DNA of 64,000 nucleotides from NCBI GenBank assembly GCA_008632985.1, contig QPGO01000093.1:1-64000 (forward strand), given 5' to 3'. Shown here piece by piece: positions 19,398 to 42,762 of the stretch (the stretch's first letter is position 1; every line of letters starts with the position of its first letter). Position numbers and translations under genes: made by a program. This DNA comes from Psammoneis japonica (Eukaryota). The notes under the pieces are model-generated. The model was not told the origin of the DNA and did no database searches. It saw nothing but the letters and a program-made list of their open reading frames with translations.

Positions 19398-19460
19398 AAA
19401 ATCGGCTTTCGTCACTCGCTAGAACTGGGTGTTTTCTAGCGAGTGACGAAAGCCGATTTT
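19398..19460. other. Perfect 27-bp inverted repeat with 9-nt loop
   Basis: aaaatcggctttcgtcactcgctagaa (19398-19424) / ttctagcgagtgacgaaagccgatttt (19434-19460). Confidence 0.95.
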
Positions 19461-19719
19461 CGATAAGTGTTTTCAGTATCGAGATTTTTGAACAGCAAAA
19501 AAACTTCGCTACCATTGACAGACCGTCGGTAGGGAGGAAATCGGTCTGACCTTCGCCTCCGACCGTTCCGAAGCAGAACACGAGAACACGATGCGACACG
19601 CGAGAGGCGAGAGGCGGCGAGAGCACACGCGCACAGCATCAACGTTGTTTCGTTGAAGCCCCTCCTCTCCTTTGTTGTCACAGCCCCCCCTAACCAATAG
19701 TGCCCAGTTCAGTGTAAGA

Positions 19720-21068: not shown

Positions 21069-21514
21069 AAATTCCGATCGTCGCTCCGCCGCCTCGGAGG
21101 GAGGTTCCGTGCGCAGTAGTTTGCTACTAACATTCTACGTAGAACGTTACGACGTCATGATTTCCGGGTCACTAAAGGGACAGCGCGTCTTTTGCTGCAT
21201 CTTATCGATCGATTCAACACATGGGTCTGACAAGGACTAAGTTCATTCAGTCATAAGGACTCAATTCGGTTTTTTACTGGTGGCACACGACGAGAGGCGC
21301 CGTGCACGACCAAGCAACAATGAGAATGTCACCACAGTGCTCCTCACTGAGACAAGGCTGATGCACGCACGTTTCCTTGTGGAGACAACATCACAAAGTG
21401 CATGAGATGTGGGTGCCAGGGAAATGCCATCTTTCGTGTGTGAGAGGGCTCCTGGGAAAGAGAGCAAACCAAAAATGAACACACATGGGTGTCACTGCTG
21501 GAAGCAAGGGGGTG

Positions 21515-23526
21515 TGTTGGAGCTGGGGTGAGAGGTGGCTTTCACAGGACAGACAGACAAAATTGCAGTGAAAAGGGCACAATGACGACCATGGATGATG
21601 TGGTGAATTTGCGTTCATGGCTCGGGCTGAGTTGCAGGCTTTGGGCTCACTTTTTTAGCTTCTGTGCTTGGTCAAAACAGCATCGCTGCAACAGCAGCAC
21701 TTGGTGTCACCGGGATGTGTTTGCAAGAGATGCGATGAGTTCTGAGTCAGCAAGGCTGAGCACACACCTGTCAGCAAGTCATGAAACTCAAATGCAGAAG
21801 CTAAAAAGTCACAGCATGACACTCAAAGGGAGCAGTTCAGCTCAAAGGCAAAGGCACTGGTGGTGGGAAGCCACCAGGAGAGCCCCCAAGAACATGGGCC
21901 ATGAAGTCGTCAGGAGGAATCCAAAGGCGCACACCTCACGTTGGCTGGTGGATCATGACAAACAAGCTGGCTGGGTGAGGGTGAAGAAACAATCTCTGGA
22001 GGGTGTTGCTGTGAGGAAGCTGTCAAGGGTCTGCTGAAAGAGGGTGTGGCAACAATGTGTCAGGGTCAGCGAGGCTGAGCATGTGACAGCATGCGAGCTG
22101 CAAGGGAAACTCCAACATTGGTGCCGGATGACATGGGCAAGGACAACAGCTGAGTGTGGGGAAGTGCAAAAGATCAAAAGGAGTGTGTGAATGACTCCAT
22201 TGCCAAGCCAGGTTGGCAGGCAGATGGCTGCAAAGAAACCATGAGGAAAATTGACGAGCATGTGTCGGGAGAGTGTGCTTGGGCCAAAGATGCAGGCACT
22301 GCTGGCATCTCTGAGGCAGGAAAGCATGCCAAAAGAGCCAGAGCATCCATTGGAAGACACCACATCAGGGAAGGACAAGGCAGTCTGGGGCAAGCAATGT
22401 GTGATCACTGCGCAAAACAGAGTGGCCGTGATCAACAAATGATGCAGAAGGCAAAGACATTTGATGCAATTGTGGGATAGCGCGCCCAAAAGCTGCTGTC
22501 CATCAAGGTCAAGGAGTGTGATGGAGTGTGTGAGAGTTACAAAAAAGTGGGGCATGGCACAGCACTGTTGGAAATTCTCAAGTTCATCCTGGCTGTTTGA
22601 CGCAAATGTGAGGATCCACTTGTGCATGTCCAGGCAACTGGGCGAGGCTTGGAAAAAGTTGGCGCACTCAGTTTTGTCAGGATGAAAGAAGAGAGGTGCC
22701 TCAAGATGACTGCAGCGAGTTTGTGAGCATTGTTGAGATGGTGGAAGGGTCCCACAGCAAAGTTCTCCCAGAAAAGTTTGACAAGAAAGAAGACAAGTTC
22801 AGCAAGGACACTGACGACACTCACAAAAAAACAAGTTCTTGTCAGTGGCACTGCCAGTGGAAGGCACCAAGGAACATTGGCATGTCTTGAAAGACCTGCA
22901 TTGGCAGCTTGCACTGGGGGTTGATGATTGTCTCAAGTTGGCCAAGAAGGCACTGCAGATGCTGGGTGCACATGAGGCCAACAAAAACCTGTGGGTGCAA
23001 GCTTTGCACAACAAAGAAAACAGCAAGTCAAGTGTTGGAAATGCAACAAGAAGGTTGGGCATGTGAAAAAGGATTGTCCTCAACTCAATGGCAGTGATGA
23101 TCATTTGTCTGTGAAATCAGATGCCTCAGGCTGTGGGAATTGGCAGAGTGGTTGAGGTGGCATTGGATGTGGCATGGTTTCCAAGTGTCATCCTCCCATG
23201 CTTGGTGCACATGAGGCCCAATCAATTGACAGCTGTTGTGAGGGAGTTTGTTCGAATGTTGGGGTGAGAGGCAGTTTTTGCAGGACAGACAAACAACATT
23301 GCAGTCAAGGACACAGTGCTGACAATGATTGCAGATCATGTGGTGAATTTGCATTTGCAGCTTGGGCTGAGTTGCTGGTCTTGTGCTTGCTTTTTTAGCT
23401 TCTGCACCCAATGGACACAGCAACAGTGCTTGACAGCATTGGGGATGTGTTTGCAAGCCATGCAGTGAGTTTGGAGTCAGTGAGACCAAAAGGGCACACC
23501 TGCGGGCAAGCCACAAAACTCCAACA
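21515..23526 (+). mobile_element. Non-autonomous gag-only LTR retroelement, copy 2 (2012 bp)
   Basis: Termini TGTTGG...CCAACA; 5-bp TSD GGGTG (21510-21514, 23527-23531); LTRs ~21515-21794 and 23249-23526; purine tract GAGGGAG before the 3' LTR; interior colinear with 15420-16750. Confidence 0.8.
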
Positions 23527-24725
23527 GGGTGGGTGCACATGGAAAAAGTTGAAATTCACACAGTGAAAAGAGTGCTTTCTTGACTCCAAGCAGTGTTTTG
23601 CGATGGCAGCACACTGTGGTCTGTCAGCTGACCAGATCTGCTGCACATGTGGTCAGACTGAGAGCCGCAAGATCTGGCTGCCTCTTCACTCTTTCTTGCT
23701 GGTGGCATGCATGGCTGTTGCTGTGTCTCCTGTTTGAGATTGGCTCAGTTTGTGATCCAAGCAAGCTTGCTTTTGTGTTTTTTTCTTTTTCTGCAAGTTT
23801 TTTCTCATGGAGCCAAGACATTTGTTGGGCCACAAGACAGCACTGCTTTTCTGCTGTGGGGTTGCAGGGTCAACTGCCCCCTCCAGGGTGCCGCTGGGGT
23901 GCCAAGCAAGTTGGAAAAGACATTTTCTGATGCCCTTGCCAAGATCACTGTGGTGTTCCAACAACACATCCCCAAGAGTCACAAAGTGCCTGCAAAAGAG
24001 ACTTTTTGTAGTGACAACTGAACTGAGCCAGTTTTTTGTTGATGAAAAGCATTCCCAATTATCCACAGTTGGTGTTGACCCCTTGGCTCTCACATGCACC
24101 ATCCATTGCACACATTTTCAAGAAAGCATCTCTCAAGGTGCAAGCCCCAATCATTGACAACAAACCATCTCAACTCTCAAGACAGATGTTGGGCCACAAA
24201 CTCCAACTTTCTCAAAAGAATTGCCTCACAAAAGCGATCATTGTGGTTGGAACACTGCACCTCTTCTTTGAACCTGGCCTGAAACATGCTCATGGGGACT
24301 GGAATGAATTTTTCGACAAACCTTTTCTGCAGGCCCAGAAGTGTGCCCCAAGACTCCAGTGGAGCGGCCTGCCAAATCTGGCTTGTCCAATGTCTCGGAT
24401 CTCATTGAGACATTGAATGAGAACCACGCTGCATCAAAAACGCCACCATTCAGAGCAGGTCTTCATTGAGTTAGAAACCATTCAGTGGTTGAGGATTGGC
24501 TCCATTTTTGCCTCTTCGAGACACGGACAAAAAAGTTGTGCAAGCTAAAAACATCTTGAAAACTGCACAGCGACGGGACGATGAGAAATCATGAACAGGA
24601 CGAGACGCAAGCAACAACGAGACTGGTGACTCAGCAAAGGATTGTCTACTTTTCGATTGACATTACAAGTGAGCTGACGCACTGCCGCAAAACACAGCCA
24701 AATTAAATCTCGGGCCCAGCAAAAT

Positions 24726-26730
24726 CTAGCCCAAGAGTGAAGTCGCCTGAATCATCCACGCAAAAACAAGCTTTTCGTTAGCACGCTTTCGCATCGCCTT
24801 CCAATGCTTGGTCAACTTGCCGTTGTCCTTTTCTAGCGATATCAGATTGGCAAGAAACATTTCCAGCCAACGTTCTGCTTCGGAGGCAGCGCCTGCATCT
24901 AAATTGCAGTAACCGCGTTCAAATTGCAGGGTCAACCAGCGATCAGCATCCAACCCTACTTCGTTTATGAGTGTCACAATGTTGTCAAAGGCTTCTTTGT
25001 GTGCAGCAGACTGTGCCTGTTCCGAAGAGGTAACATTGAAGCATCGCCCAAAGATTCGGGCCTGGAAAACAAAGCACATCGCGAGACCGAAACTAGCTCT
25101 ATCGATGTCCTCGAGACTTTCGCTGGTGTCGAACTTGGCAGACGCAGCCATCGGGTGCTGCATGGCTTTCTGACGATTCCTCTCTGAAAGTGCAAGCGGG
25201 TCGTTTCTGACGACGCGAGTCATCATTCCCAGAGCGAGGGGGAGTGGATGATCCGGAGGGCACGCTTCGACAGCAGCTTGTGCCGGTCCCATGTCCTGAG
25301 CATCCAGAGCAAAATCCAAAGACAGCATCCAATGCGTCGCTTGGGGCTTTTCTCTTGACGAGCTTCTTGGCCTTTGCCCAGAGATCGTAAGGATCAAGGG
25401 TTGCATCCAAAGGTGGCAACTTTTTTACGGCTTGCATTCTTTTAACACTTTTCTCTTTTTCCTTTTCTTGCTGCTTGCGAGAGCGCTTCGCATTCTTACA
25501 CAGCTGCTTGTGCCCTGCTTTCCAAGACTTCACTTGACACTCTCGGGAGCAATACACCGCAGATCTACACTTCTGACATAGCTTCGGGTTCGGAACGAGT
25601 TGTTTGCATTGATGACATTCTTGGTGACTGAGCAGGTTTGCATCGAGCCCTGCTATTAGCACCTGTAGAGCATCGCGGCTTGACCAATCAATTCTCTGGC
25701 GAACAAACGGAGGAAGCGCATTACGCTAGGCCTCGGCGCTATCCCAGCACTTTGTAACCATTGCTTTGTCCTTCTCACAAGCATAAACGGAGCAAAGAAA
25801 GTATTCTGCAGCAACGGCATGTCCGTAATCTAAAGGAGTCAATCTGTCCTTGTATTTCTCAACGTCACCAATGACGTGCAAAAGGCATTCTTTCGATTCA
25901 TCCATACGACCAAGATTAAAGAGGACTTTCCCGCGTGACTTTTGAATTTCCCAGCGTTCGAAGGAATCCTTTGGGGTTAAGTTGACAGCTTGGGTCAGCG
26001 CTTAGAGAGCCACGGAGGTCTTATGCATTGACATGTAGGAAGATGCAATGGCATTTCGTAGTCTCCAATCCTTCGGTCGAATTTTAATAGCATTGATAAA
26101 GGAGGGAATCGAGTTCTCCACTCTAGTGGCTCGCAGAATGCATGCCATGACCGCATTTGCCGACGCAACCACTTGTGGTTCATCGTGATTTAACAGACTC
26201 TGAGCAGCCTTTGTCAGTTTTTGATATGCTTTGATCAAACTAAACTTTCCATCGACGGCAACCTTACGCAAGGTTTTGCACCTATTTCGAAGCAGAGGTT
26301 CCTCCGCGATGGCAATGAGCTGCGCATCCGAGACATGGATCAAGCCGCGTTCGTTTGCTTCGACGGTTGTCCATTCTTCGGGGCATTCCACATCGGAAGT
26401 GGACATCGTGAATTGCTCATTTGCCAAACTCTTTTCGTCGTCATTCTTCAGCCGTGTATGCGCCAAGTCCCGAGAAAGCTGGTCACTGGTAGGGTCGTCG
26501 AGAATTGCTTGCGCTGATTGGCGTTCTACTTCCATCCTCAGTCGCTGCTCTTGTTCATAGCAATCATCCCGATGTACCTCCAGAATGCACTCAGGTCGTA
26601 CAGCGACAACTTTATCGGTGTCTTGCACACGCACGGCATATCGGCCCTTCGTGGTGTGGAATTTGACGATTTTGCCCAATTGACCATTGCACTGAGGCTG
26701 ATTCTGCAAGTTATGGATCATCACATCACT
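24726..26730 (-). pseudogene. Disrupted gene for an SH3-like/TPR-like/MYND zinc-finger protein
   Basis: MYND 'CHQC...CQKCRSAVYCSRECQVKSWKAGHKQLC'. The frame continues through TAA (26002-26004) and TAG (25726-25728), with a frameshift near 25330. 5' end uncertain (ORF extends to 27105). Confidence 0.65.
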
Positions 26731-27547
26731 GCCGATAGGGAACAGTCTCGGCTTTCTGACGAGCAGAAGACATTTTGAATTAGAATCTCGAGCAGCTTCA
26801 AGAGATCCACCCTTTCGCTTTTGGGATTGCAACTTGGAACCAAAGACGATGATTTTTGTCGACGCAAACGACGACAGACGACAGATCCATGGAGCAAAGT
26901 TGTCAACTGCGATTCTTCGAGTTTGAGTTGCTCTGGTGAGCTGAGGAGAACAGATGAAACTCGTCCAGCAGACTGCAGACCACGAGCAAACAAGCCGCAA
27001 AAGCCGCCCAACGCTTAAGATGTCCTGCAGTGTGCCTTGCTCGTCGCCTGTTGTCACAAACAGCTGGGAGGTGAGTGCTGAGCTGTTCACAGTTGTTGCA
27101 GACAAGGAGAGTCCAACGCTGCCGAGTTCATTGCCATTTGGGCAGAGATCTCACTCAGCTGGCCTCTCTAATCTCTAGCTACTAGAGTAGCAGAGTGTCT
27201 ATCTGCCTGGGGTCGCTATTGGGTGGTGTTTTCGATGCGACTCATCATCTGTGAGAAGGGCGAGAGCGCATCCAGCATGCGTACGTGCGTGCAGGCAATC
27301 GGAATCAGATCGGAATATTCAACGGAAATGTTTTGGCGGGAAGTAAACAAGTCAAATATTGGTTTTCCCTATATTATTCAACCTTGAAATTGTATATAAT
27401 CAATGAAGGTATTCATATTCCAGGGATTTAAAATTTATAGGCAATTTTTCTTTTTTTTTGCTCTTGTTTGCTCACACAATTCGTTCTGTTGTTGTTTGCC
27501 GGCACTTTAGGCATTCTCATTCTCATTCGTTCTCATCGAAAGTCGCA

Positions 27548-28513
27548 ATGAGGGTCAAGCGGGTGCTGTCGATCTGGGCCATCCCACTCTCTCTTGTTCA
27601 GTACACGGTGATTCCGGCTTCAGTTGACAACACTGCTGTAAGATGGCGGCACCGTTGCAATCTGGACGAGACGTATCTCAATGCCGGGATCATTGACCAC
27701 TTCCGAACTGTTTACTCTTCGCATTCAATAGATCAAAACAGACTGAATGCTGCCCATCAGGATTACACCCATCCGTGTTCACATCACACAAATCGGGCTT
27801 ATTCCTGGACCTATAACGAGGAACAGACCCTGCATGGTTTTCTGGAGTCCACCTTGTTTTTGCCAATACATCTCTTTTGGTTTTTGTATGTCATTCTTTG
27901 CATCCTTGCCACGGCTTACGGTGCTCTATTGGAAACACACCCTGTCTTGGTAAAAAGCTTCACTGCAGCAATGATCGGGGGAATAGGAGACACGATGGCA
28001 CAAATATTTGAGAATGCTGCTTTTCTTGACGACGAAAGCAATCATAACGAGAGTGATTGCGAAAAACAAAAATTTGAATACAACTTCCGTCGAACGCTTT
28101 CAAGTGCTGCAGAGGGACTGTTCGTCTCAGGTCCTCTTATGCATTTTTCTTATGATTACTTGGAAGCTGTTATTCCTGTGAATGGCAAGAGTAGTCATAT
28201 TGCAATGAAATGGGCTGCAACCGTTGCCCAGGTTGCTTTCGACGCCCTTGTCATGGACCCTGTGTTTGTTGGTACTCTTTTTCTAGTACCTGCGATTTTG
28301 GAGGGTCGCAGTCGCTCGATACCCCACATATTCAAGAAAAATTTCATACCGGCTGTCCAGGCTTCCTGGCTGTCGTCTCTGCTCTTTTCGCCTTTGCAAT
28401 GCTTGGCGTTTCGGTACCTTCGATTGGAATTTCGAGTGCTTGCAATGAATTTTCAAGACGTGCTTTGGGAGGGGCTTGTTAGCTTTATTGCGCATCGGAG
28501 CCATAAAACGTGA
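27548..28513 (+). CDS. Mpv17/PMP22-family membrane protein
   Basis: 'LETHPVLVKSFTAAMIGGIGDTMAQ', 'GPLMHFSYDYLE', 'FDALVMDP', 'Q.LAFRYL..EFRVL'. Confidence 0.85.
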   Translation: MRVKRVLSIWAIPLSLVQYTVIPASVDNTAVRWRHRCNLDETYLNAGIIDHFRTVYSSHSIDQNRLNAAHQDYTHPCSHHTNRAYSWTYNEEQTLHGFLESTLFLPIHLFWFLYVILCILATAYGALLETHPVLVKSFTAAMIGGIGDTMAQIFENAAFLDDESNHNESDCEKQKFEYNFRRTLSSAAEGLFVSGPLMHFSYDYLEAVIPVNGKSSHIAMKWAATVAQVAFDALVMDPVFVGTLFLVPAILEGRSRSIPHIFKKNFIPAVQASWLSSLLFSPLQCLAFRYLRLEFRVLAMNFQDVLWEGLVSFIAHRSHKT

Positions 28514-28880: not shown

Positions 28881-29467
28881 TCACAATCCCAACTCAGTCA
28901 ATCCAGGATGGTCTTCTGGTCGTGGAGCATCCCACGGCCAATGAAATTTTCGCTCTTCCTCGGTAATAGGAACATCATTAATAGATGCATGACGCTTCGC
29001 CATCAGTCCGTTGCTGTCGAATTCCCAATTCTCGTTCCCTGAAAAGAAGACGAAGTACGATACTGTCAGCTCGTCCCGAATGGAGAGCAGCTACAAGCAC
29101 TAGTATTTCAGTGAATGTGACACTCACCGTATGCACGAAACCATTTACCATCTTCATCGTGATATTCATAGGCAAATCTGACGGCGATACGGTTTTCTCC
29201 ATAGCACCAAATCTCTTTGATGAGACGGTATTCTAGCTCGCGATCCCATTTTCCTGACAGGAAGGCGGCAATCTCGTCTCGGCCCTTGACGAACGTAGAC
29301 CGATTCCTCCATTCTGAGTCGACAGTGTATGCCATTTTGACCTTGTCGGGATTTCGACTATTCCACGCATCTTCTGCCATTCGCACTTTCTTGATTGCAG
29401 TTTCCAGCGTAAAGGGAGGAACGGGAGGCTTGATCTCGGACGTGATGGATGCGGCAGCAGCACTCAT
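28881..29467 (-). CDS. DUF1348 / SnoaL-NTF2-like protein
   Basis: '[35 protein letters not shown]...[13 protein letters not shown]....RIAVRFAYE', one intron (~29039-29128), then 'NENWEFD..GLM..RHASIND'. Confidence 0.9.
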
Positions 29468-29888
29468 TCTTTCGTAGTGACAGTTGTTGAAATGAATTTA
29501 TGAGCGGTTCGGAATATTTCGTAACAGATCCAAGAGAACTCCAACGAAATATATTGACGAAGATCAGCATCATGAATGAAAGATGCCTGTGCGGGCGATC
29601 TCGCAATAAATTCGATTCGCTTCATCGAGCGGAACAAAACCAAAACAAAAACGCTCGGGAAAGATTTAGCGGCTGCGACATTGAGTCGTGATTGAGCAAA
29701 ATGATGATCGGGTGGTGGATACGTAGAATGTATAACAAAACCTACGTGACCACGTCATCCACGAGTCGAAAACCTGAAGGTGAATGAAAGTCCAAGCCAA
29801 CCATTTTTTTGTCGGCGGCAGCGAAACTGAAAACAAGCTGTCGACGCACAATCGTTGTTTGCTTTCACGACGTTCGCTGACTGCAACA

Positions 29889-31844
29889 ATGACGACCGAC
29901 TTTATCGCTTGCAATGTTGATGATTGCCAAAAAAATGCAAAGCTGGTCTCACCAAAAGCGTTGTGCGAACATCTGGCGTCTGGCACTGATGATGAGCAAA
30001 CCCTCCGCGAGAATCGCTCGCCTTTTAATTTGTGGCACCTGCAACCTCGTGTTCTCTGGTCCACAGCAAACCTTTCAACGGTGACTCATTTGTTTGGCCA
30101 AGCTCTCGATTTTCCGGTCTTTGATGCGCTCCAGCTCCAGATGGGTTCCAGTCCTGGGTGGGACTCCGTGTGACATTGGGCCCGTAGAATTTTGCGTGCG
30201 AGCTCCGCAGTGAATTTGTGCTGCAATGAAAATGTAAATGATCGCCAACAGAAAAAGAGGCAATTTTACGAACGCATCTCCTCCTTCATGCTTGCAGCAC
30301 ATCATTGACAGTTTGCCCGGGTGTGTTCTGCAGACATTAAAGAACACACCCAGCGCATTTTCATTCTCACAAATGTTGAAAATAGAAAGCCTTTGGCTTC
30401 GCAAAACAGGGAGTGTGAAGCAATTTCGTAGAATTTAACATGTAGAAATGTGCGCGCGCAACATGCGACGCGACCCAGCTCCAGGTGTGGGACCTCGCAC
30501 TGCTGCACTGTGACATCAACAGTTTTTTGGATCGAGTCGCATGTCGTGCATGCACATTTCCACGTGTTAAATTCTATGAAATTGTTTCACACTCCCTGTT
30601 TTGCGAAGCCAAAGGCTTTCTATTTTCAACATTTGTGAGAATGAAAATGCTCTGGGTGTGTTCTTTGATGTCTGAAGAATGTGCACCCTGGCAAACTGTC
30701 AACCAATGATGTGCTGCAAGTGTGGAGGAGGAGATGCACTCGTAAAATTGCCTCTTTTTCTGTCGGTGATCATTTGCATTTTCATTGCTTTGCAAATTTG
30801 CTGCGGAGCTTGCACGCAGAATTCTGCGGGCCCAATGTCACACGGAGTCCCACCTGGGGCTGGAACCCATCCTTTGTCAGTCCGGCAGGAGCTCATGCAC
30901 TTTGCGACCCAAAACACGTTGAATGCTCCACAGCAAGGGCACGCGGGCGAGACGGGATCAAAGCAATTTTTGGACTGTTGCAGCATGCGACCAGGTTGAT
31001 CGAAGATGTTGCTGCAGTGGCGCCGAACTCAAATCTCTGGTGCCAATCGCATCTTCTCAAAGACCGCCAATTGACTCTTTGGCTCTTGAAACATGCCATC
31101 CAAGCAGGCTGCAAAGGCACATTTCTGATGGTGGACTCTGTTGAGTTTGGATGACATGAGGTGGATGCATGCAATGGGTGAGTTAAAATGCAGCCTTTCT
31201 CACACATGGCTTTTTCGACAGAATGGGAGCTCGCTCAGTTTCGATGCCCTTCCGCCGCCTCACAGATTGGCCAATTGTGACAAGGAAGGTCAATCAAACC
31301 TCGAACAGATGCACAATGGCAAAGCTGAAAAGGCCCGGGGCCAGAATTCTGAGCAAATGTTCGAGCAAGATGTCACATGGGATGATCTGAGATGGCTCAA
31401 GCAACATTGCAAAGGCCTCCCGCTGGTTGTCAAAGGCATCATGACTGCAGAGGATGCCCGCTCGGCGGTGGAAAATGGCGCCAATGGAGCAATGGCATCC
31501 AACCATGGTGGAAGAGCCCTCGGCACATTGCTTGCCTCTGTTGATGCACTTCCAGAGGTTGCAAAGGCCGTTGGTGGCCGCATTCCAGTGCTGTTGGACG
31601 GAGGAGTGTGGCGAGGGATGGATGTTCTGAAGGCTCTTGCGCGACCGCAGTGGGTGTCGGGAAACCCACATTCTTTGCCTTGTCTGCAAATGGCGAAGAA
31701 GCCATCATTGACATGTTGAAAGTGCTGAAGACCAAGCTGGAAGCCGCCATGGCAACATGCGGTGTTGAAAGCATTCATGAAGTGCAAGCAAGCCTCGTGA
31801 CTCGTCACCCCGTCCGTGAACCCTGCATTCATTCGTCGCCATGA
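29889..31844 (+). pseudogene. FMN-dependent alpha-hydroxy-acid oxidase (glycolate oxidase-like) pseudogene interrupted by a foldback insertion
   Basis: 'LASGTDDEQTLRENR', 'PRVL', 'PVF|VSPAG', 'TWDDLRWL', 'LPLVVKGIMTAEDA', 'SNHGGR', 'VLLDGGV.RG.DVLKALA'; with a stop, frameshifts and Tyr-to-Cys/His changes. Confidence 0.9.
30124..30871. mobile_element. 748-bp foldback/MITE-like insertion (two ~335-bp inverted arms)
   Basis: 30140-~30475 is the reverse complement of ~30528-30871. 5-bp TSD CTTTG (30119-30123, 30872-30876). Removing the insert and one TSD restores ccg gtc ttt gtc agt ccg (PVFVSP). Confidence 0.9.
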
Positions 31845-31906
31845 GAAGTTCCGAGGAGGCAGCTTGGTGACCTCCAGCTGGAGAGCTTGTTTTCAATGCG
31901 CCTGTG

Positions 31907-32685
31907 TCATGTGATCCACTGCGGGTTGTTCTCTGTTTCCAAGCATGCCATTTCACTGAGTGTCGTGCAACAATGCAGCCCTTTGGCTTGCGCTTCTTCC
32001 AAAAAGGACTCGATCGCGGTGAAACATGCTTCTCGAAAGCCACATTCAGGCATGTGGAAAATGGCAATGCTCCCATCTGAATGCATCTGGTGCAACATCA
32101 ATGGAGCAACATGGCTTGCATCAGACGCGGAGTCTGAGAAGGCCCAATCATCGCAGCAAGAGTCACACCAAGCACATGTCTGAGCCCCCGTTCGCTTGCG
32201 ACTTCCTTCATGCGTCGCGTCATGAGTCCCTGAGGTGCTCGAAACCATCTGCCACTCTCGACACCTCCATTGATCTCGTTTAAGAAGCTGTTGGAATTCT
32301 GGAGTTCAGCATCGAATTCGTCCTTTGACAGTCTGGAGAAATGCCCTGAAATGTCTTCGCAAAGATGGCTCCCCAACTCATGGCACTCACGGATGAGTTC
32401 ACTCGCAGTTTCAAGCGTCGTGCACTCGGCACAAACAAAGAAAGTTGCATGAGCATTGAAGCGTTGCAAAAGATCCATAATTTCCGGTGGCATTGACGAT
32501 TCAGACCCTCCTCTCGAAAGTCCATCGTCAATCGTCAATGCAACGCAGCCCTCCACGTTCTGCCCTTCAAAGCAAAACCTTGTGTTTCTGCACACTGGGA
32601 AAAGTTTGACCAGCCGTGTCAATTTTCGTACCCCTGTGGATGATGTCATAGCTTTCCAGAACAATTTGATTGCACCCTTCGACAT
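31907..32685 (-). pseudogene. Polysaccharide deacetylase (NodB/CE4-like) pseudogene
   Basis: 'VALTIDDG', 'AHATFFV', 'HELGSH', 'WFRAPQG', 'HVLG/DSCCDDW', 'GSIAIFH'; frameshift ~32165; TpA-depleted. Confidence 0.8.
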
Positions 32686-33010
32686 TGCTGCTTGTTGATG
32701 ATTGTGCTGTGAGCCAGCATCTTTTGAGATGTGCTTGCAACACGGAGACCGAGGAGGCAGAATGTTTTGGGGGAAAGCACCCACAACCCAGCATAAAACC
32801 AACACGTATGTCCCAACAGCAATCTCCAGCCTCTTCATGAGCGTCCAGCACTGAAGCCATTCGCTCTCTACGTTGTTGTCATCAAAGAAGCAACAACGCC
32901 GTAAACCGTCAACAGCGATCATTCGATCATCGCACCGCACGCTCGTGACTAAAAAATGAGGATGACGTCAGCGAACTTTTCGACGACCGAGATTACGCGA
33001 ACGAACGACC

Positions 33011-34309
33011 ATGGTCAAAGCACGAAGAAAAGCGGCCCGGGAGAAAGCAACAAAAAGCGACACCATGGCACGAGTTATTGCGATATTATTGTGTCACCTC
33101 GTTCTGGTGATGTCGTTCTCATCGAGCAGTCGCAGTGCCGTCAACGTGAGAAGAACTGGGCAGTCGCGACGTCTGTCTCGAGAACAAAGAACAGAGCCTG
33201 GTCCGGTCACAGCGGACAGCGATGAACCGGAAATGTCAGAATCAAGACGGGCGCTTCTTTCTTCATTTGCAGCTGGAGCTATGCTAGGGATGATTTCACT
33301 TTACCCTGCTGAAACAGATGCGATTGAAACTGCTGGTAGCAATGTTGATGCTGATACGTCATCCTTTACGGAATCCCCAGAGCTTTTGGTTTCTTCCTCC
33401 GAGGCTGCAGCCGTAGATTGGGGAGGAATAGTTCAGAAAGCAAGTAAGAAGGCGCTCGGAGGAGGCAAAGCTGGCGCTTCAGCTGCTGTTGTGCAAGTGG
33501 GATCCCTAATGTGGTTGCGTACAGCGATGAACTATCAGTATCGATATGGTGGCAATTTAGTAACTTCTCTAGAAGCACTTTGGGCTGAAGGTGGCGTGGC
33601 ACGATTGTATCAAGGTCTACCCTTTGCATTGGTTCAGGGACCGTTGTCTCGATTTGGAGATACGGCAGCAAACGTGGGAGTCCTGGCATTGCTGGAGAGC
33701 TTTGATGTGACGGCATCTCTTCCGCTCCCATTGAAGACTGCGTGTGGGAGTCTGACAGCTGGATTGTGGCGGATATTCATCATGCCTGTAGACACTTCTA
33801 AAACAGCCATGCAAGTGGAGGGCAAGGATGGGTTGGAACGTTTATGGACAAAAGTCGGTAGAGAAGGGCCATCACCACTCTACCAAGGAGCCTTTGCGTC
33901 AGCAGCAGCCACTTCTGTGGGTCACTTTCCATGGTTTCTAACATACAACTTCCTCAACGAGGTCATACCCGCAGTGTCTGCATCCGACGACCTCTTTTTG
34001 TCCCTCGTGCGTTCCGCCTTTCTGGGTCTCTGCGCATCAGGTGTTTCAGATACATGTTCCAATAGTCTTCGAGTAATCAAAACGACAAAGCAGACAGCCG
34101 GCCTCGCAGCTGCACCGACCTCAGAAGAATCGAACGGAACACCTGTGGAGCTTTCGTACAAGGAAGCAGTGAATCTAATTATTGAAAAGGACGGATTCCT
34201 TGGGCTCTTCGGTCGAGGCTTGCAGACTCGACTTTTGACAAACGCTATCCAAGGAGCTCTGTTCTCCGTGCTCTGGCGATACTTTCAGCAGGTTGGTGGT
34301 GCTCAATGA
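33011..34309 (+). CDS. Mitochondrial-carrier-family protein with N-terminal targeting extension (start possibly ~33065)
   Basis: 'LMWLRTAMNYQYRYG', 'LYQGLPFALVQGPLSRFGDTAAN', 'MPVDTSKT..Q', 'GLFGRGLQTR'. Confidence 0.85.
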   Translation: MVKARRKAAREKATKSDTMARVIAILLCHLVLVMSFSSSSRSAVNVRRTGQSRRLSREQRTEPGPVTADSDEPEMSESRRALLSSFAAGAMLGMISLYPAETDAIETAGSNVDADTSSFTESPELLVSSSEAAAVDWGGIVQKASKKALGGGKAGASAAVVQVGSLMWLRTAMNYQYRYGGNLVTSLEALWAEGGVARLYQGLPFALVQGPLSRFGDTAANVGVLALLESFDVTASLPLPLKTACGSLTAGLWRIFIMPVDTSKTAMQVEGKDGLERLWTKVGREGPSPLYQGAFASAAATSVGHFPWFLTYNFLNEVIPAVSASDDLFLSLVRSAFLGLCASGVSDTCSNSLRVIKTTKQTAGLAAAPTSEESNGTPVELSYKEAVNLIIEKDGFLGLFGRGLQTRLLTNAIQGALFSVLWRYFQQVGGAQ

Positions 34310-34342
34310 TAGAACTCAAAGTCATGTCCTTATATGTAGCAG

Positions 34343-36691
34343 TCACACGATGTCTTCATCTTCACTAGCTGGCGGCACCACGAATCCAACAAGTCCCAGC
34401 TTTTGTGTCGCCCAACTGTCCAGTAGCTCCGTAGGAGGTGTAACATGCACTGCTTTGTATGCCCAGAGCACATTGGCAATGGACTGAGCACTTGCGTCTT
34501 GTATCTGTTCCATCAACGCGGCAGAGAGTCTCGAGAATACCTCCCGGTCGCCAATCTTCATTCTACCCATAGCGTACAGGACATTGGAGACCTCTTGTGG
34601 AGAAGGATTCAACGATACAATCTGCCTTGTCAACTCTGAGATGGTCTCTTTGTTATTGTATCCAACTCTCGCTAAGCCCCAAATAATGTTGGCAACCTCC
34701 CGAGATGAAAGACTGGATACCAGCTCCTGTGTTCGGAATACCAAGGGATAGACAATGGAAGGTTCTTTGATATAGAGCCGTCCACAGGTCCATATGGATT
34801 GCGCAACATCGTTTGTCGTTAGTGTTGGTGCTTGCAAAGCCAGGTATCTGGCAAATTCCTTGGCGCATGATACGTAGTGCGGGAGAGTCTTTCTCCGCGA
34901 CTGTTTTCGGAAAATTGTCATTTTGCCGCATGCCCAAAGGCTCTGTGCCACTTGTCTGGCAGTGCACTCTTCCAACCCCAGCGCAACACGTCCCGCCAGG
35001 GCATCAAAAACCATCATATCATCTACATGTGAAGCCCGAGCATAGGCAAACATGATTGCTGAGGCTTCCCTTGGTTCAAATTCCATGGGCCACAAATGCG
35101 CTCCGAATTTATCAAACAACTGGGTGAGAAGATCTTCAACTTCCTGTTCGTACTTCTTTGTATCAGGACCGTCTCGAAATGCGAGGGTAGTGAAGCTTGT
35201 CAGTATCCGCCCGGCGGTCGTTGGTGTGCATTTCCTACACTTGTCCGAATCAAGCAGCTGATGAGCAAGCTCTACCAACACCTCGTGGTCCGTCCAATGA
35301 GTTTGAGTTGCAAAGTAACGAAACCGGCTGATTTCGACACAGTTGCATAGAGAGAGAAATTTATGATCGACATTGGATTCAGGAGCGAATAGAACTCGGG
35401 CAGCGCGAACGTAGGGCGTCATGATGACTTCGTTATCAGGATGAAGAAGCGCAGCAAACAAGAGAATCTCGGCCACACGACGAGGTTCCATTTGCTCTTC
35501 TCCAGCGCAGACCAACTTTCGAAACCGTTCTCCCAATCGTCCGACTGAGTTCGGCTGAGACACGAGGTCCAGTCTAAGCAAGCATGACAAAATTCGCTTA
35601 ACGTCGGTCAATGTAACTCTGTCTTTAGAGGCTATGGTGCTCGCACAGGTATTATGACAGAGTTGTGCCAGAATAGGTTCGGTCGTATTGATTCCAAGAC
35701 TTTGAGCGATATCCAATGCTTTGGTCATTTGTCGTGTCGTAAGTGGCGACTCTTGTCGATCTGCCAAATCACGAAGGACCGTAAAGCACATTACCCTTGC
35801 CTCTTCGCGCATCTTTGAAGTCGCATTTGACGATAGCACTTTTGTGGCTACAAGAGCGCGAAACATATCCGAGTTGGCGGCGTGTTCCCGGACTGATTTC
35901 TTTCGAAGGCGTCGCATAAAGGGTATGGGAGAGACAGGGTGTTGGTCCAGCCTTGAGCAAACATTAAGAATTCGAGAAAGATCATAGGCCTTCAAGGCAC
36001 CCAAGGAGTCACCTCGTCCCAGTCGATCACAGGCAGTTTGTACAAAATCAGAACAATCAGACATCAATCTCAGAGAAGCCATCGTTTCGAGACTCTGAAC
36101 CAATCGTTTCGGTCCTACAGCCTTAATGTAGCGCTCTTGTTGGTCATCAATCAGGTCACACACTTTACTAGCAAGTGGTTTCAGTTTCGGATTGTATCCA
36201 CCAGCAAGTTTTCCAAGCGAAATCAACACATCCGATAAAGCATACACCGTAAGGTTCGTCGTTGTGTTGGGCGCCGTCACAACAGCTGTACCAACATTTT
36301 CCAACAACATGGCCAAAGTGCTTCCACTCTCGATATCAATTTCTGAAAAGCAAATTAAATCAACTGTTTTATGTAGCGCAGCAGCGGCAACATTAGGGCC
36401 CACTCGTGTTTCAGGTTTTGAATTACTCTGCTGAATGCTTCTCTGAGCGTTGCTTACGGAAGGATTTGCCCACAGAGAAAACTCGAGGATGTCGTGAACG
36501 TGGTCGAGGGTCTCGCAACTTCGGAGAGACCAAATGACATCAGCTTCCATTGAAGCGATATCCGCGTCAAAACGATGGGGTTGTCCTAAAGCCGAAAAAG
36601 CCACGCATTTCTGCGCCGACGCCGCAGTCGCGACGAAAAACGCATAGATTATTTTCATGCTGTTAACAGCACTCTGCCTCTTTAGAAACAC
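34343..36691 (-). CDS. Helical-repeat (OPR/FASTK-like) organellar RNA-binding protein
   Basis: Repeated 'Q/RE.(S/A)N..W(A/G)..R' units in the C-terminal half; signal-peptide-like N-terminus 'MKIIYAFFVATAASA'. Confidence 0.7.
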   Translation of the reverse strand: MFLKRQSAVNSMKIIYAFFVATAASAQKCVAFSALGQPHRFDADIASMEADVIWSLRSCETLDHVHDILEFSLWANPSVSNAQRSIQQSNSKPETRVGPNVAAAALHKTVDLICFSEIDIESGSTLAMLLENVGTAVVTAPNTTTNLTVYALSDVLISLGKLAGGYNPKLKPLASKVCDLIDDQQERYIKAVGPKRLVQSLETMASLRLMSDCSDFVQTACDRLGRGDSLGALKAYDLSRILNVCSRLDQHPVSPIPFMRRLRKKSVREHAANSDMFRALVATKVLSSNATSKMREEARVMCFTVLRDLADRQESPLTTRQMTKALDIAQSLGINTTEPILAQLCHNTCASTIASKDRVTLTDVKRILSCLLRLDLVSQPNSVGRLGERFRKLVCAGEEQMEPRRVAEILLFAALLHPDNEVIMTPYVRAARVLFAPESNVDHKFLSLCNCVEISRFRYFATQTHWTDHEVLVELAHQLLDSDKCRKCTPTTAGRILTSFTTLAFRDGPDTKKYEQEVEDLLTQLFDKFGAHLWPMEFEPREASAIMFAYARASHVDDMMVFDALAGRVALGLEECTARQVAQSLWACGKMTIFRKQSRRKTLPHYVSCAKEFARYLALQAPTLTTNDVAQSIWTCGRLYIKEPSIVYPLVFRTQELVSSLSSREVANIIWGLARVGYNNKETISELTRQIVSLNPSPQEVSNVLYAMGRMKIGDREVFSRLSAALMEQIQDASAQSIANVLWAYKAVHVTPPTELLDSWATQKLGLVGFVVPPASEDEDIV

Positions 36692-36999: not shown

Positions 37000-39030
37000 A
37001 GCAGGAGGACCCAAAGCAGATGGGAGACACACACAAATTGCCAAATTCTTTGGAGACAATCAACCCGCGCCAGCGGGAAAATCAAAAAAGACACTCCTGT
37101 GCGACTGTTGACCCAACGATCATCTCCACTTGGCACGTGGGGTTGGCTTTTCAGTTCAGCACATGTTTGACTTAAAAGCTGAGTTTTGCAAACATGTCAA
37201 GAACTGTTGGACTCATGTCATCTTGAGAAGAGCTTTGCACCAGCCGCGCACACAGAGGTTGTTGTGAGGAGGTCTGTTCAAGGGGGCACCCTCCAAATGA
37301 AATGAGTGGCAGCACTCTTTTTAGAATGGGTGCTGACGGAAGCTCCATCACTCTGCCCTGGCCTTCAGAGAGTGGCTGCTCATCACAAACCACCACTCTT
37401 GGGTGGCTCCCATTGTTTGAGACCCAGCAGGTCAAGTTGCGTGTGGCAGCAGCAGGGCAGGGTGAGGAGAGACAGCCCCCAGATGGCAGGTGTTTTGGCT
37501 GTTCTTGCGAAAAAAGGCATCTTCAGCTGCTGTCAAGATGCTGGCAATGAAATTTTGGTGATGTGTTGACTTCATTCTTGCCAACAAGTCTTTTGTCACT
37601 TTTGACCTTTTCTTGCACTTCTGGTGCCTCCTTGGCAGCATTGAGCATCAACTTTGTGACTGTCCTTTCTTTTCATCCACAGCATGCTGTCTCTGCCACC
37701 ACTGATGTTGCCCCATCCATCTAGCCACCTGCCTGGCTGTCTGGCAGCAGCCTGTTTTGTGTGTGAGCACCAAGTTTTTGAGCAAGAACTGGGTGTCTCC
37801 TGAGCCAGCACCTTCACAACCATCACATCTGCTCCCCCCTTCATCCTTCACCCACGCCAGTGTGCTGCACCATGCAGCAGTCAATTGGCCAAGATCAAAA
37901 GCAGAACAAGAAAGGGCTCAACAAAGAGCGGTTGCTCAAGAGCAGCTGTTTGCTGCTGCTCATGTCATCCTTCAGCTGAGAGCAAGGGTGGCAAGTGGGA
38001 GGCATTGAAAGCAACTGCTGCAAAGGCAAAAGACGCTCTCCACATCAAGAGGTCATCCCCAAGGGTGTGTGCAAATCAAAGCTGTCTGTGGAGGAAAGCA
38101 GCATCCTTCCACCTCCCACAAAACGTTCTGACAAGAGGAAGTCATTTGAGAGTTTTTTGCCTTTCAAGTGCAAAAGACAAGCTCTCAACATTGGCCACTG
38201 GAATGTTGTCAGAGCACTTGTTTGTTGAGTTTTGTTGGATTCCCTGGTCCTGTGCATCTTTTGTTTTACAAACCATTGCAGCAATTTCCACCTCACAAGA
38301 AAATGCTGTGCTTTGTGAAGAGTGGCTTGTTGTTCACACAGCATGTTGAGACACATGCTCTCTTTTGCTGCTTTGCAATGACTGGCCCATCTCATTTGAA
38401 GTTGTGCATGCTGGGAAAAGCAGGCAACAATGTGAAAATCTTCTCCACATTTCTTGGTCACATTGTCATCATCATGGTCTTCACATGGTTGCCAACTCAT
38501 TTCACACACACCAACTTAAGCTCTCAAGCACCTTGGAGAGCCATCTTTTCCACATTTGATTTAAAAGAAGGCAACCTTGAAACAAAAACCCAAATTTCAG
38601 AACTCTTGCAAGCACATGGATGCAGTTGCAAATGATTTCCATGAGCATGAGATGCTGTTCTGGAACTTCACCTCTCAAGCACCAACTGCTCAAAATCACA
38701 GCACCGCTCAACACAGTCCTGTGCAGCTGCAAATTTGCAATGCTCTCATCACTGCTGCTGTGAATGTTGGAGCCCCACAAGTCCCCTGCCACTGATCAAC
38801 ACAAAGAGGCTCAACATTGATGCGTGTCAAGCAGAAGCTCAAATCTGCAGGAAAGAGAAAATGCTTTGCAGCAGTTCCCAAGCAATTTTGGCCAGCACAC
38901 ATGGCCCCAATGCCCAATCACCCACTCCCAAAACAAAATGCTGATGGCCTGGATCAACCATCCCAGGAAATTTGAAAACCCCAATCGAACCTTTGCCACG
39001 CCCACCTGCACATTCATTCCGGGCCGGGGT
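37000..39030 (+). mobile_element. Degenerate DNA-transposon relic, possibly piggyBac-like
   Basis: TpA/CpG-depleted; fragments 'FEVVHAGK' and 'SCKHMDAVAND' resemble piggyBac FEVY.GK and Y.KYM.AVD..D once Tyr is restored. No convincing terminal repeats. Confidence 0.35.
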
Positions 39031-39264
39031 TAGAACCAGAAGACCAAACACAGCGCCCTTCGATGTCCTAGCGCGCGACAGGTGGTGGGACGAGATGCGA
39101 TGGCGTGCCTAATCGAATGTTTCGGAAGCAGGAAATACAGTGTGTGAATTCATTTGGAATCGACTACTAGTGTGATAGTCGTAATTGCCTCGGGTACATG
39201 TTGATATCCTGTATAAACATTTTCTGAGTCTCACAGCGTACTAGCTACTAGATTCAGTCCTTCA

Positions 39265-41194
39265 CTACTTAAGATCCACAGGTAGTCCCATCTTTTCTAG
39301 TCGATCTTCAAGCGCCGTTCTTTGTTTCATGCCGTACTTCTTTTCGTCTCCAGGCAACACTTGTCCAAGCGTGCTTCCTTCGGCCCGGTCCAAATTCTCC
39401 GCATCCAAGCCCTGTTGCATGATTTGCTTTTCAAGCGCCGCAATTGTCCTCTTCAACAGGCGTTTTTCATTCCGTCGGTGTCTTACTGCCATGCGTTGAT
39501 TGTAACTCAATAGACGAAAGAGGCCCTTGTCTTTAATAATAGCGGCATCGTCGGCTTCCTTTTGAGGGTATTGGCGCAATTGACGGCGGACAGCTTGAAC
39601 AACCGATTTCAATACGGCAGCCTCATTGGCGGCCGAAATAGGACGTCGGAAATCGAATTCCATCAGTGGCTTGCCCCTAAATCAAGGAAGGCGACGGATC
39701 AATATGAGAGCATTGATCCACGCGAGCAACAGTAACAGTATTATGAGTGTTGGGGTACGTACCGAGTATCTTCTGGTGAAATTTGCATCAGACGGAGATA
39801 TTCCAACATTTCGATTGGATAACGATCTGCGTAGCAAGGAAAGTCTACCGTGTTTTCTCTCCTGACTTCCTTCAGGAATTCGAGTTTCTCCTCCGCCAAA
39901 GGGTCCACCGGTACATTTTCATCTGCGAGAGCCTTGACAAAAGAAGCAGTTCGAGGAGCAATAGAGACGGTCACATCCACGGAATTGTAAGGATTCCGTT
40001 CCACCGCAAAGCCGTAAAGAAGCAGCAGGTCTGCGTTTGACTTTGGTCCATACGATATGTAGATTTGTTCCATGCGACGGTATCCACGATCGGCATACAA
40101 AATGATTTCCTCTTCTCCCGTTTTAAAGAGCCAATCTCCGGATTCACGAGCATCAATATATGCGCCAGAAAAGGGTGAGTGGTTAATGAGATCAGCATAG
40201 GGAACCATCGCAAGGGCCTCTCCCTGTTTCAGACTCCGAAGTCGAATCGCTCTCGAAAACAACATTGTGAATGCCCAAACCCAATTCTCATACGTGAAAT
40301 GCTACAACAGCAAACAGAAAAAGGGAGAGAAATGTTAACCCCATATATAATGATGGCGCAGGATTCAGCGAAACAATCGTCGAAACCTACTTCTTTCGGG
40401 AAGCGATCCGGGAATTTGCTAATCAATCCATCTTCTCCGCCGAGAAGCATTTCATATTCACTTTTAAGTTTCATTTGAAGACTTTTGGTGGCTGCCACCA
40501 CTGGAGAACCCTCGAGAAAGGCCAAGTCGTCATCATTCCACGTAAAGGTGGGATTGACTTCGTCCACCTCTGGCAAGACGTCCATGTAAGGCTTGTAATA
40601 GGACTTGTCGCCCATGACGTATCTTTCATGAATCAACTGACAGGCAATCGCAAGATACTCATTGATTTCTCTGGGAAGAGCATCCTTGCCCAACGCCTTG
40701 CGTGCCGACTTTTTCGTCATGCACAATTTGAGAGGAATCTTGAGCAATTCATCACCATCATTAATGTCACGACGCGCCAACAAACCACGTCCTGAAGATT
40801 CATTGGTAATTTCATCACGAGTCTCGGTTGAAATCGCCATTGGGTGTGGGGCTTCACCCCACGAGGACGCTTCCGACAAGTAAACGTCGCCCTCTTCTTC
40901 CAGCCACTTCGTCAGGCGGGCATTGGCACTCAACTTTGTATTTGCGTTTCCACCGTCGCTGCTCCCCAAGAGGCCTTTCATTTTCATTTCCTTTTCAAAT
41001 TCGCCGGGAATAATTCCAGTGCTTTCTTCTAAGGCTTTGGACCATTCCGAATCTCCACCCTCTCCACCCGCCATAAAGAGCCTCTTACCAGCAGGTCGGC
41101 ACGATGAAGGACACACAAAGGAATCAACCTCTAAAATCCATGGCGCCAACAAGACGATTCTCGGGAATGACACCATCGTTAAACACGGCTTCAA
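39265..41194 (-). CDS. SET-domain lysine methyltransferase, Rubisco LSMT-like
   Basis: 'SGRGLLARRDI..G..LLKIP', 'MVPYADLINH', 'EQIYISYGPKSNADLLLLYGF', substrate-binding C-terminus; introns ~40300-40390 and ~39680-39760. Confidence 0.9.
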
Positions 41195-41519: not shown

Positions 41520-42401
41520 TTACCGCCACCAGGCATTCACGCTGATACTACTTTCCACTGTGCGAACAAAATGGAACCATTTCTTTGGGATGTACAAGAG
41601 GTCGCCGGGAATCAGTGTGCATTCCTTTGCTGGTGATACATTCGCCAACAGTGGGTATCGTTTCAGGTCGGGTGGCTCTTCTGGATTGATTTGAGAAGTA
41701 TTCTTTTGATTTCCATCGTAGCCTGCGTACAGGGATTCGTCCGGAGGGTAAAGGAGACAACGCTTGGTCCCGACGAACTGCATCAAAGCATTGTCCAACG
41801 GATCAGTGTGCAGAGGCGAGACGCACCCATAAGGACCTATCCAAATCATTGTGCTGTAAAGCTTTCCTTCTCCCACACTAAGGCTTGAGTCTTTGCAAAA
41901 GTCTGGCACGGAGAAGTCTGCGTGGAGTTCTTCAAACACATCATTCTGGGCCAGATACACCAGCTCGTCACTCGGAGGAGGCTGGGGTCCAGTTCTGCCA
42001 TGACGTTCTTCAAAAAATTGCAAATACGAAAGAAAGTCTCCAAACCGTATGTCGGATCGTTGGGATTTGGCGTAATTCCCTCCCACTTCCACATGGCAAA
42101 CTTTGTCTTCTCCAACGGTTTCTTGCAAGTAAGACAAATCGTTCCACTTGTGCGTTGCCTCTGCTGCAGCAACTGCACCTCTCAGGACCACTGGTTGTTG
42201 CGCGTCAAAATAGGGACGCACTGTCTCTGATATTTCAAGCTGAGTCCACAATCCTTTGGAGCTCGTCTCCTCTTGGATTGGAACGAACGGCATGGCATCG
42301 ACAGAAGAGAAAGATCTTGTAGAACAGCACTGAATTTTGGTTTCCACGTTTATTTTCTCAACTTTAGGTAGCATGCGTAGCATAACTCGTACGACTGACA
42401 T
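41520..42401 (-). CDS. JmjC-domain (JMJD5-like) 2-oxoglutarate/Fe oxygenase
   Basis: 'YLAQ', 'WIGP.G.VSPLHTDP.DN..Q.VGTK', 'PGDLLYIPKKWFHFV......SVN.WW'. Confidence 0.9.
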   Translation of the reverse strand: MSVVRVMLRMLPKVEKINVETKIQCCSTRSFSSVDAMPFVPIQEETSSKGLWTQLEISETVRPYFDAQQPVVLRGAVAAAEATHKWNDLSYLQETVGEDKVCHVEVGGNYAKSQRSDIRFGDFLSYLQFFEERHGRTGPQPPPSDELVYLAQNDVFEELHADFSVPDFCKDSSLSVGEGKLYSTMIWIGPYGCVSPLHTDPLDNALMQFVGTKRCLLYPPDESLYAGYDGNQKNTSQINPEEPPDLKRYPLLANVSPAKECTLIPGDLLYIPKKWFHFVRTVESSISVNAWWR

Positions 42402-42762
42402 CGTGGATCCGTTCAGTGCCTGTTTTGTTGTGGAATAATACGCAGCTTATTGTGTTTGTTGTGATGGTTGTGTTGCTTCGAGATAAAGATCGAGAACGCA
42501 AGGAGAATGTGCCGATTTTTGGATTTTTCCCGCGCGTCCGTCCGTTTGTCGCACTCCCGCGCCGCTATCGATTCGCGATTCCGCGATGACGCATGTTTTG
42601 ACTTGTCGTCACATTTTTTTTGACAACTCGCTCAGCTTGTTCGACCGTGTCACAAGTCACAATGGTAGCAATGATGCCCTTATTCCGATTCTCTCGGTTG
42701 TGCTCTGTGGTTTCAGTGACTTTGTGGATTTTAACTCTAGACAGTCTCATTCTTGAACAATC

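Follow-up and report, generated by a model that had tools for sequence, protein, structure and literature searches.

The 64,000-nucleotide stretch of Psammoneis japonica contig QPGO01000093.1 analysed here (hereafter the window) contains two convergent host-type genes that have lost nearly all of their TA dinucleotides. One resembles a flavin mononucleotide-dependent 2-hydroxy-acid (glycolate) oxidase and is called FMN_dh below, after its Pfam domain; the other is a NodB-type polysaccharide deacetylase gene. The block that holds them is most probably a redundant, dead copy of a host gene pair, changed by a region-limited process that acts on DNA and converts TpA into TpG or CpA. The change runs in one direction, it affects only TA among the A/T dinucleotides, it reaches into an intron and upstream DNA, it ends at sharp edges, and a second copy of the pair has escaped it.

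A sharply bounded TA-poor tract

The tract (Table 1) slightly exceeds the interval 29889..32685, in which the original prediction had placed a TpA mutation signature. A foldback (hairpin) element interrupts the first gene. Without this element, the tract holds 7 TA in 2,297 bp (at 29903, 30026, 31184, 32281, 32478, 32629 and 32649), where about 83 would be expected at the density of the flanks; in 2,000 shuffles of the 2,297-bp sequence the mean was 137 TA and the minimum 107. The ratios of observed to expected dinucleotides are 0.05 for TA, 1.59 for TG, 1.45 for CA and 0.75 for CG. The other A/T dinucleotides are undepleted (AA 1.35, AT 1.00, TT 1.21), so this is not a general drift from A/T to G/C. 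The joint excess of TG and CA (about 97) matches the deficit of TA (about 76) plus that of CG (about 17). Since 92% of TA but 13% of CpG has been lost from the same tract, the TpA process would outpace CpG decay roughly 18-fold per site.

The loss does not follow coding sequence. The 61-nt intron of the FMN_dh gene has one TA, the 145 bp upstream of its ATG have none, and the intergenic DNA is affected as well. The tract begins at the far end of those 145 bp and stops 45 bp inside the NodB coding region. Both edges are sharp, and TA is present just past the right one, at 32794, 32807 and 32869. The FMN_dh family is not natively TA-poor, because its coding span has TA at 0.31-0.86 of expectation in 18 environmental loci. 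Native codon bias and GC-biased conversion were ruled out as explanations, as only TA drops and relatives retain it. A processed retrocopy was ruled out by the retained intron.

Two broken genes with a shared signature

Both genes match their family profiles above the cut-offs, as the original prediction of a convergent glycolate-oxidase-like and NodB pair had it. The FMN_dh domain (PF01070) matches the + strand with 136.2 bits against a cut-off of 24.9 (E 1.8e-39), and a tblastn search with homologues matched the gene along its whole length, in 4 pieces. Polysacc_deac_1 (PF01522) matches the - strand with 57.9 bits against a cut-off of 23.1 (E 1.3e-15), so that the genes stand tail to tail. 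Both are broken and are pseudogenes. The FMN_dh gene has neither the intact frame nor the conserved residues of a working enzyme: 59 of 254 conserved columns are altered, an in-frame TGA lies at 31152-31154, exon 2 is frameshifted near 31640-31645 by the loss of about 7 nt where homologues have ALG, and the foldback element splits a conserved run of codons between PVF and VSPAG. Compared with the second copy described below (copy 2), the NodB gene has 2 additional bases near 32164 that shift its frame, and the frame that opens at the NodB ATG meets its earliest stop at 32098-32100.

For a count of residue changes, 60 FMN_dh homologues and 44 NodB homologues were placed on the DNA with tblastn; columns with at least 70% and at least 60% agreement were taken as conserved, and 9 intron rows were dropped. 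In the FMN_dh gene 195 of the 254 conserved columns are unchanged, yet none of the 8 conserved tyrosines is kept. Their codons now read TGY (4), CAY (3) or TGA (1), which is cysteine, histidine or stop. The cysteines lie at 29964, 31041, 31110 and 31276 and the histidines at 29970, 31050 and 31312. In the NodB gene, 89 of 106 conserved columns are unchanged and 0 of 5 conserved tyrosines are kept, with TGC for cysteine in three cases (32592, 32424 and 32158) and TTC for phenylalanine in two. A JmjC gene in normal DNA of the window (41520-42446) served as control; here 108 of 113 columns are unchanged and 8 of 9 conserved tyrosines are still encoded by TAY.

Of the 59 altered FMN_dh residues, 15 are consistent with a single TpA transition: tyrosine to cysteine or histidine, valine to alanine (GCA stands in place of a valine codon at 31495, 31561 and 31686), isoleucine to threonine (ACA), and isoleucine to valine after T. 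A single CpG transition fits another 16, among them arginine to tryptophan (two), to histidine (two), to glutamine and to cysteine, and threonine to methionine (three). The remainder comprises one G:C to A:T change in another context, 9 transversions, 9 changes that need two steps, and the A:T to G:C changes outside TpA that are weighed below. The motifs from which the signature had been predicted are all present: DDCQ (TGC, 29925), ALCEHLASG (TGC, 29964; CAT, 29970), LWHL (CAC, 30036), WCQSH (TGC, 31041; CAT, 31050), AGCKG (TGC, 31110) and GAMASNHGG (GCA, 31495). The CpG-type changes of arginine to tryptophan and glutamine named in the original prediction are present as well.

An unmutated second copy

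The sequence itself was confirmed, and a second version of the block was found, in k-mer contigs of two public sequencing runs, X1 and X2, made from one sample. Contigs of X1, with an even depth of about 58, reproduce the TA-free sequence over 37165-38787 exactly (0 differences) and over 31381-32025 with 2 differences, so the pattern is not an assembly slip. A different artefact would be modified bases in silenced DNA that are misread as G or C where TA is truly present. The platform of the runs is unrecorded and they share a sample, which leaves some room for such misreading. Against it, contigs of about 58-fold depth give exactly the TA-free sequence while the same run contains copy 2 with its TA, and the block carries lesions beyond any miscalling, including a 753-bp insertion, indels, transversions and an intron that is longer in copy 2. 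Misreading is therefore hardly credible as the cause. Six sites of the window (26097, 26124, 26334, 26690, 27103 and 31018) differ from all covering X1 contigs, in each case by a transition; each is due to a difference of strain or haplotype or to an error of assembly.

Copy 2 is present in X1 at a depth of 58.7, against 56 for the version of the window. A contig across both gene ends (31381-32025) has 93 differences and 11 gaps in 650 bp relative to the window, and X2 contigs of copy 2 give 1,254 letters over 29862-31879 and 889 letters over 31996-32888. Copy 2 has the same convergent layout as the window block and lacks the foldback element; its sequence passes from 30119 directly to 30873, with TTTG on both sides. 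In X1, which is DNA-like, the copy-2 intron is longer than the 61 nt of the window. An X2 contig has exactly 50 letters, all of them exon, for a span that in the window comprises 50 exon letters and the 61-nt intron; the contig thus looks spliced, though the run is not recorded as RNA. The window's own version of the block is uncovered in X2, which says nothing on its expression.

Over 29270-32538 the depths add up to about 125-154, whereas the flanks (26001-28335, 32539-33472 and 39077-40000) stand at 58-61. Copy 2 is best read as a paralogue and not an allele, since the summed depth doubles instead of staying constant. The original prediction had called for a search for an intact copy, which turned out positive, and for a tabulation of substitutions by context. 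The tally covers 29 differences from copy 2, among 40 listed of 631. Seven have TA in copy 2 and TG (4) or CA (3) in the window, and the reverse occurs 0 times. Six have CG in copy 2 and TG or CA in the window, with 3 in reverse. The remaining differences are 8 transitions of other kinds and 5 transversions. The two strands are about equally affected, both here and among the FMN_dh tyrosines, where 4 became cysteine and 3 histidine. The 258 bp of 29862-30119 contain 9 TA in copy 2, the density of background DNA, and 2 in the window. By eye, at the loose end of an X2 contig, the homology continues upstream of the ATG and includes one further TA of copy 2 opposite CA in the window. On the other side, homology to copy 2 reaches at least 95 bp beyond the right edge of the tract, where TA of the window survives.

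A neighbouring gene region with normal TA (33473-36274) also has second versions in the runs, with about 1-5% differences and a summed depth roughly double the value in the flanks; at 34608-34619 neither contig agrees with the window. This could be a larger or a separate duplication, and it is relevant to the question of what triggers the change.

Several points weigh against the reading given at the outset. In B. natans, the precedent discussed below, almost no other class of mutation occurs, while here 13 of the 29 tabulated differences belong to the remaining transitions or the transversions, and changes at CpG are frequent. These 13 could sit on either lineage and could be the background expected in an old pseudogene. 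Nine of the 59 FMN_dh changes are A:T to G:C outside TpA, either because the process here is perhaps looser than that of B. natans or because these residues may have changed by multi-step paths. At the protein level the signature is weak in NodB, where a TpA change fits only 3 of the 17 conserved residues that were altered and the two tyrosines replaced by phenylalanine require a transversion. No NodB change fits CpG. In other contexts, A:T to G:C occurs once and G:C to A:T five times, and there are 7 transversions and a single change that needs two steps. The spectrum at the DNA level covers about 330 bp of the FMN_dh gene and none of NodB. Since X1 and X2 come from one sample, they are not independent of the source of the assembly, and depth is the only basis for placing copy 2 at a paralogous locus instead of on a very divergent allele. 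Finally, the long terminal repeats (LTRs) of a Copia element elsewhere in the window retain TA, though they are repeats.

The foldback element

The foldback element is flanked by TTTG on each side and has two pairs of arms, 30140-30307 with 30704-30871 (88% complementary) and 30326-30477 with 30528-30679 (91%). Its family occurs in thousands of contigs of the sample, with a summed depth of 24,000-69,000 against about 58, and thus behaves like a high-copy element resembling a miniature inverted-repeat transposable element. The mismatches between its arms are 5 CA/TG, 3 CA/TA, 1 TA/TG, 8 CA/CG and 3 CG/TG.

The hairpin could have been the cause of the damage, by making double-stranded RNA or drawing heterochromatin and so spreading a TpA mutator over both genes; the duplication would then be irrelevant. 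The position of the element within the tract, the enormous abundance of its family, the TpA- and CpG-type mismatches of its own arms, and a copy 2 that has neither the element nor the mutations all agree with this. The element itself, however, keeps 12 TA, or 0.23 of expectation against 0.05 in the surrounding tract, which fits an insertion after most of the TA had gone. The tract is also lopsided around the element, with 376 bp on its left side and 1,921 bp on its right, and it ends sharply without fading, which again fits a late insertion. Spread of silencing from the foldback element, one of two origins offered by the original prediction, is disfavoured on these grounds, and we regard it as improbable.

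Another hairpin-forming sequence, a 73-bp palindrome at 19393-19465, lies in the most TA-rich part of the window (18001-19500, with 35-40 TA per 500 bp) and is not linked with TA loss.

Other TA-poor blocks of the window

The window as a whole has TA at 0.36 of expectation, TG at 1.33 and CA at 1.39. Background DNA has 15-25 TA per 500 bp (observed/expected about 0.55), and set into it are seven sharply bounded blocks with 0-4 TA per 500 bp (Table 1). Pfam identifies host genes for RanBP1, Mpv17/PMP22, a mitochondrial carrier and JmjC/Cupin_8, and one Copia-type retroelement (gag-pre-integrase, SH3_retrovirus, RVT_2).

Table 1. Positions of the pseudogene pair, the foldback element and other TA-poor features in the window
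Feature	Position	Strand	Remarks
TA-poor tract	29744..32793	.	limits set from TA positions
FMN-dependent 2-hydroxy-acid (glycolate) oxidase-like pseudogene, exon 1, first part	29889..30119	+	ATG 29889
Foldback (hairpin) element	30120..30872	.	753 bp
FMN_dh pseudogene, exon 1, second part	30873..31177	+	
FMN_dh pseudogene, intron	31178..31238	+	61 nt, GT..AG, one TA (31184)
FMN_dh pseudogene, exon 2	31239..31844	+	stop 31842-31844
NodB-type polysaccharide deacetylase pseudogene	31990..32838	-	ATG 32838
TA-poor blocks	1-6000, 12001-17000, 21501-24500, 30501-32500, 37001-39000, 45501-51500, 54001-55500		
Copia-type LTR retroelement	44637-52055		195-bp LTRs 44637-44831 and 51861-52055, 97.9% identical

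Five of the blocks (1-6000, 12001-17000, 21501-24500, 37001-39000 and 54001-55500) have lost CpG as well, with observed/expected ratios of 0.04 for TA and 0.22 for CG. None of their 59 frames of at least 110 amino acids reaches a Pfam cut-off (one has a sub-threshold match to a domain of unknown function), and 8 longer frames among 21 scanned gave no Pfam match; the frame scans therefore did not confirm these blocks as retroelements. The other two blocks largely keep their CpG, at a normal 0.91 in the interior of the Copia element (TA 0.16) and 0.75 in the study block (TA 0.05), so TA loss and CpG loss are separate and TA loss is the faster. Deamination of 5-methylcytosine has left its usual trace in the study block, in the 16 of 59 residue changes of the CpG to TpG or CpA type, and a strong one in the older blocks, but it cannot remove TA.

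The Copia element looks young and possibly still working, as if tolerating or adapted to the TpA mutator. Its LTRs retain many TA and differ at four sites, two of which are TA/TG; the active-site motif YVDD of its reverse transcriptase is intact at about 50782, and its translation has only 15 tyrosines in about 2,200 residues.

The 90 TA that survive in the TA-poor blocks have a context of their own. Relative to 1,313 background TA they are enriched in TTAA (3.0-fold), CTAA/TTAG (2.7-fold) and GTAA/TTAC (1.5-fold) and depleted in ATAC/GTAT (0.2-fold) and ATAT (0.3-fold). These numbers are small, and the mutator may have a preference for a longer sequence context.

Repeats in the window also bear on whether duplication by itself is the signal. 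In repeat-induced point mutation (RIP) of fungi, C changes to T at CpA, which creates TpA, and both copies of a duplication are mutated. A strict mechanism of this sort, in which homology is sensed and the tract is the duplicated segment, would agree with the second copy of the whole block at equal depth and with the repeat families among the other TA-free blocks. One such repeat pair (22134-23527 and 15621-17040) is 68% alike and has 39 double mismatches of CA with TG, the mark of independent changes in each copy of a shared ancestral TA or CG. The process resembles RIP in ascomycetes as a mutational defence that is bounded by region, prefers a dinucleotide and wrecks repeats or duplicated genes. 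Its direction is the opposite, as TpA is destroyed here (observed/expected 0.05), and copy 2 is untouched. Homology to copy 2 also runs on past the right edge into DNA that kept its TA, the second versions at 33.5-36.3 kb go with normal TA, and the LTR pair retains TA. Homology sensing in the strict sense is unlikely. The segmental duplicate that the original prediction proposed as the other possible origin thus does exist as a second copy of the whole block, while duplication is only a possible trigger, given an unmutated copy 2 and a TA-normal region at 33.5-36.3 kb that has second versions as well.

Relation to known mutators

The closest precedent is the TpA-only hypermutation of the chlorarachniophyte Bigelowiella natans (Mettrop et al., bioRxiv 10.64898/2026.01.13.699255). 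According to the main text of that preprint, two integrated viral regions in mutation-accumulation lines had a mutation rate of about 6e-7 per site per generation; nearly all changes were A to G or T to C, and every one was at TpA. The authors propose an ADAT2-like DNA adenine deaminase that defends against foreign DNA. The word "diatom" is absent from the text of the preprint, and our literature searches found no report of TpA hypermutation in diatoms and no other close precedent.

The TA-poor DNA of the window and the B. natans regions described in the main text share the change from TpA to TpG or CpA on both strands, the sharp limits, the footprint of low TA with high CA plus TG, and reverse-transcriptase genes among the depleted sequences. 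The polarity is the same, with 7 changes against 0 in reverse, 8 of 8 conserved FMN_dh tyrosines lost and TA alone depleted among the A/T dinucleotides. The affected DNA is again confined to discrete regions of foreign or repeated type, with seven blocks in 64 kb, of which one is a Copia element and the study block is a duplicate. There are also differences. The relatives here are diatoms, and depletion goes to 0.04-0.05 of expectation, compared with a Rho of 0.45 in the nucleocytoplasmic large DNA virus (NCLDV) region of B. natans. The targets in B. natans were integrated NCLDV and virophage DNA, whereas the target here is a duplicated host-type gene pair, and the process is read from its footprint. 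Some A:T to G:C changes outside TpA occur here as well. Judged by what the main text of the preprint reports, the footprint is the same in kind as that of B. natans and is seen here in a diatom-like genome. By analogy, the process behind it is probably of the same kind as the hypermutation in the mutation-accumulation lines.

Clustered transitions with a neighbour preference are also produced when ADAR or APOBEC enzymes edit retroelements, and ADAR prefers U before the edited A (stated in 10.64898/2026.01.13.699255). Such editing takes place at the RNA or cDNA stage and is strand-biased, unlike the change seen here, which affects intron, upstream DNA and genes on opposite strands about equally. 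Because intron, upstream and intergenic DNA and both strands of an unprocessed two-gene segment are hit, the process would act on double-stranded genomic DNA and not on RNA or cDNA. The original prediction had argued against reverse transcription and RNA editing from the involvement of non-retroelement genes, and the intron, upstream DNA and both strands now add to that argument.

The targets of B. natans, as the main text of the preprint gives them, are integrated viruses and transposon genes, and the gene pair in the window could likewise be part of foreign or mobile DNA, as the cargo of a transposon or of an integrated virus, and have been targeted as an invader. It would fit that NodB adjoins FMN_dh in 0 of 18 environmental loci, few of which are long; as most are short, this is weak evidence either way. 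No terminal repeats bounding the tract were found, however, and for each of the three genes searched (FMN_dh, NodB and JmjC) the named close homologues are all from diatoms, of the genera Nitzschia, Thalassiosira, Mayamaea, Fragilariopsis, Fistulifera, Cylindrotheca, Seminavis and Chaetoceros. The best protein match of FMN_dh has 72% identity in its best part and about 50-64% elsewhere, and that of NodB has 49%. Across these searches nothing came closer than 62-72% identity, as for a diatom-like alga that has no near relative in the collection. Even the intact JmjC neighbour has no protein match above 65%, and a protein-atlas look-up of it gave no informative taxon. Likewise, copy 2 was not recovered as a protein in the collection searched, where the organism's own proteins seem to be absent. 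With a spliceosomal intron in the gene and the same convergent layout in copy 2, an invading gene pair is very doubtful.

A possible mechanism and its trigger

The evidence fits best with a process in which A:T is changed to G:C at TpA on either strand, to yield TpG or CpA, with ordinary CpG decay going on alongside at a much slower rate. The same process would have emptied the repeat blocks of the window of TA. By analogy, a candidate enzyme is a polynucleotide adenine deaminase of the TadA/ADAT type that acts on DNA. In the natural tRNA substrate of TadA/ADAT enzymes, a U precedes the target A.

The process is probably aimed at silenced or redundant DNA and not at foreign sequence as such. 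The trigger is harder to name. We give about even odds to a sequence of events in which both genes of the redundant pair were silenced together and then mutated as silenced DNA, with the foldback element inserted later into an already dying gene. Joint silencing is suggested because the extent of the tract corresponds fairly closely to that of the two convergent transcription units.

Implications

The footprint described here appears in another lineage of the SAR group (stramenopiles, alveolates and Rhizaria), is near completion, and lies on host-type metabolic genes. Foreign origin is thus not required for targeting. The intact twin in the same genome provides a matched pair, before and after, from which the mutation spectrum can be read. 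What marks DNA for this change could be its copy number, its silencing or a hairpin insert, and these options can now be tested across whole genomes in an ecologically major group of algae.

It is tempting to speculate further, though the proposal as a whole is tentative and, on balance, doubtful. Diatoms may possess a genome defence in which DNA adenine deamination removes TpA wherever DNA is silenced or redundant, even in host genes, at about 18 times the pace of CpG decay. It might be common to chlorarachniophytes and hence ancient in SAR, and an active Copia element would seem to be adapted to it, having shed TA in its coding sequence but kept the TA of YVDD and of its LTRs. If a DNA-acting adenine deaminase is indeed responsible, it would be a natural counterpart of the engineered adenine base editors.

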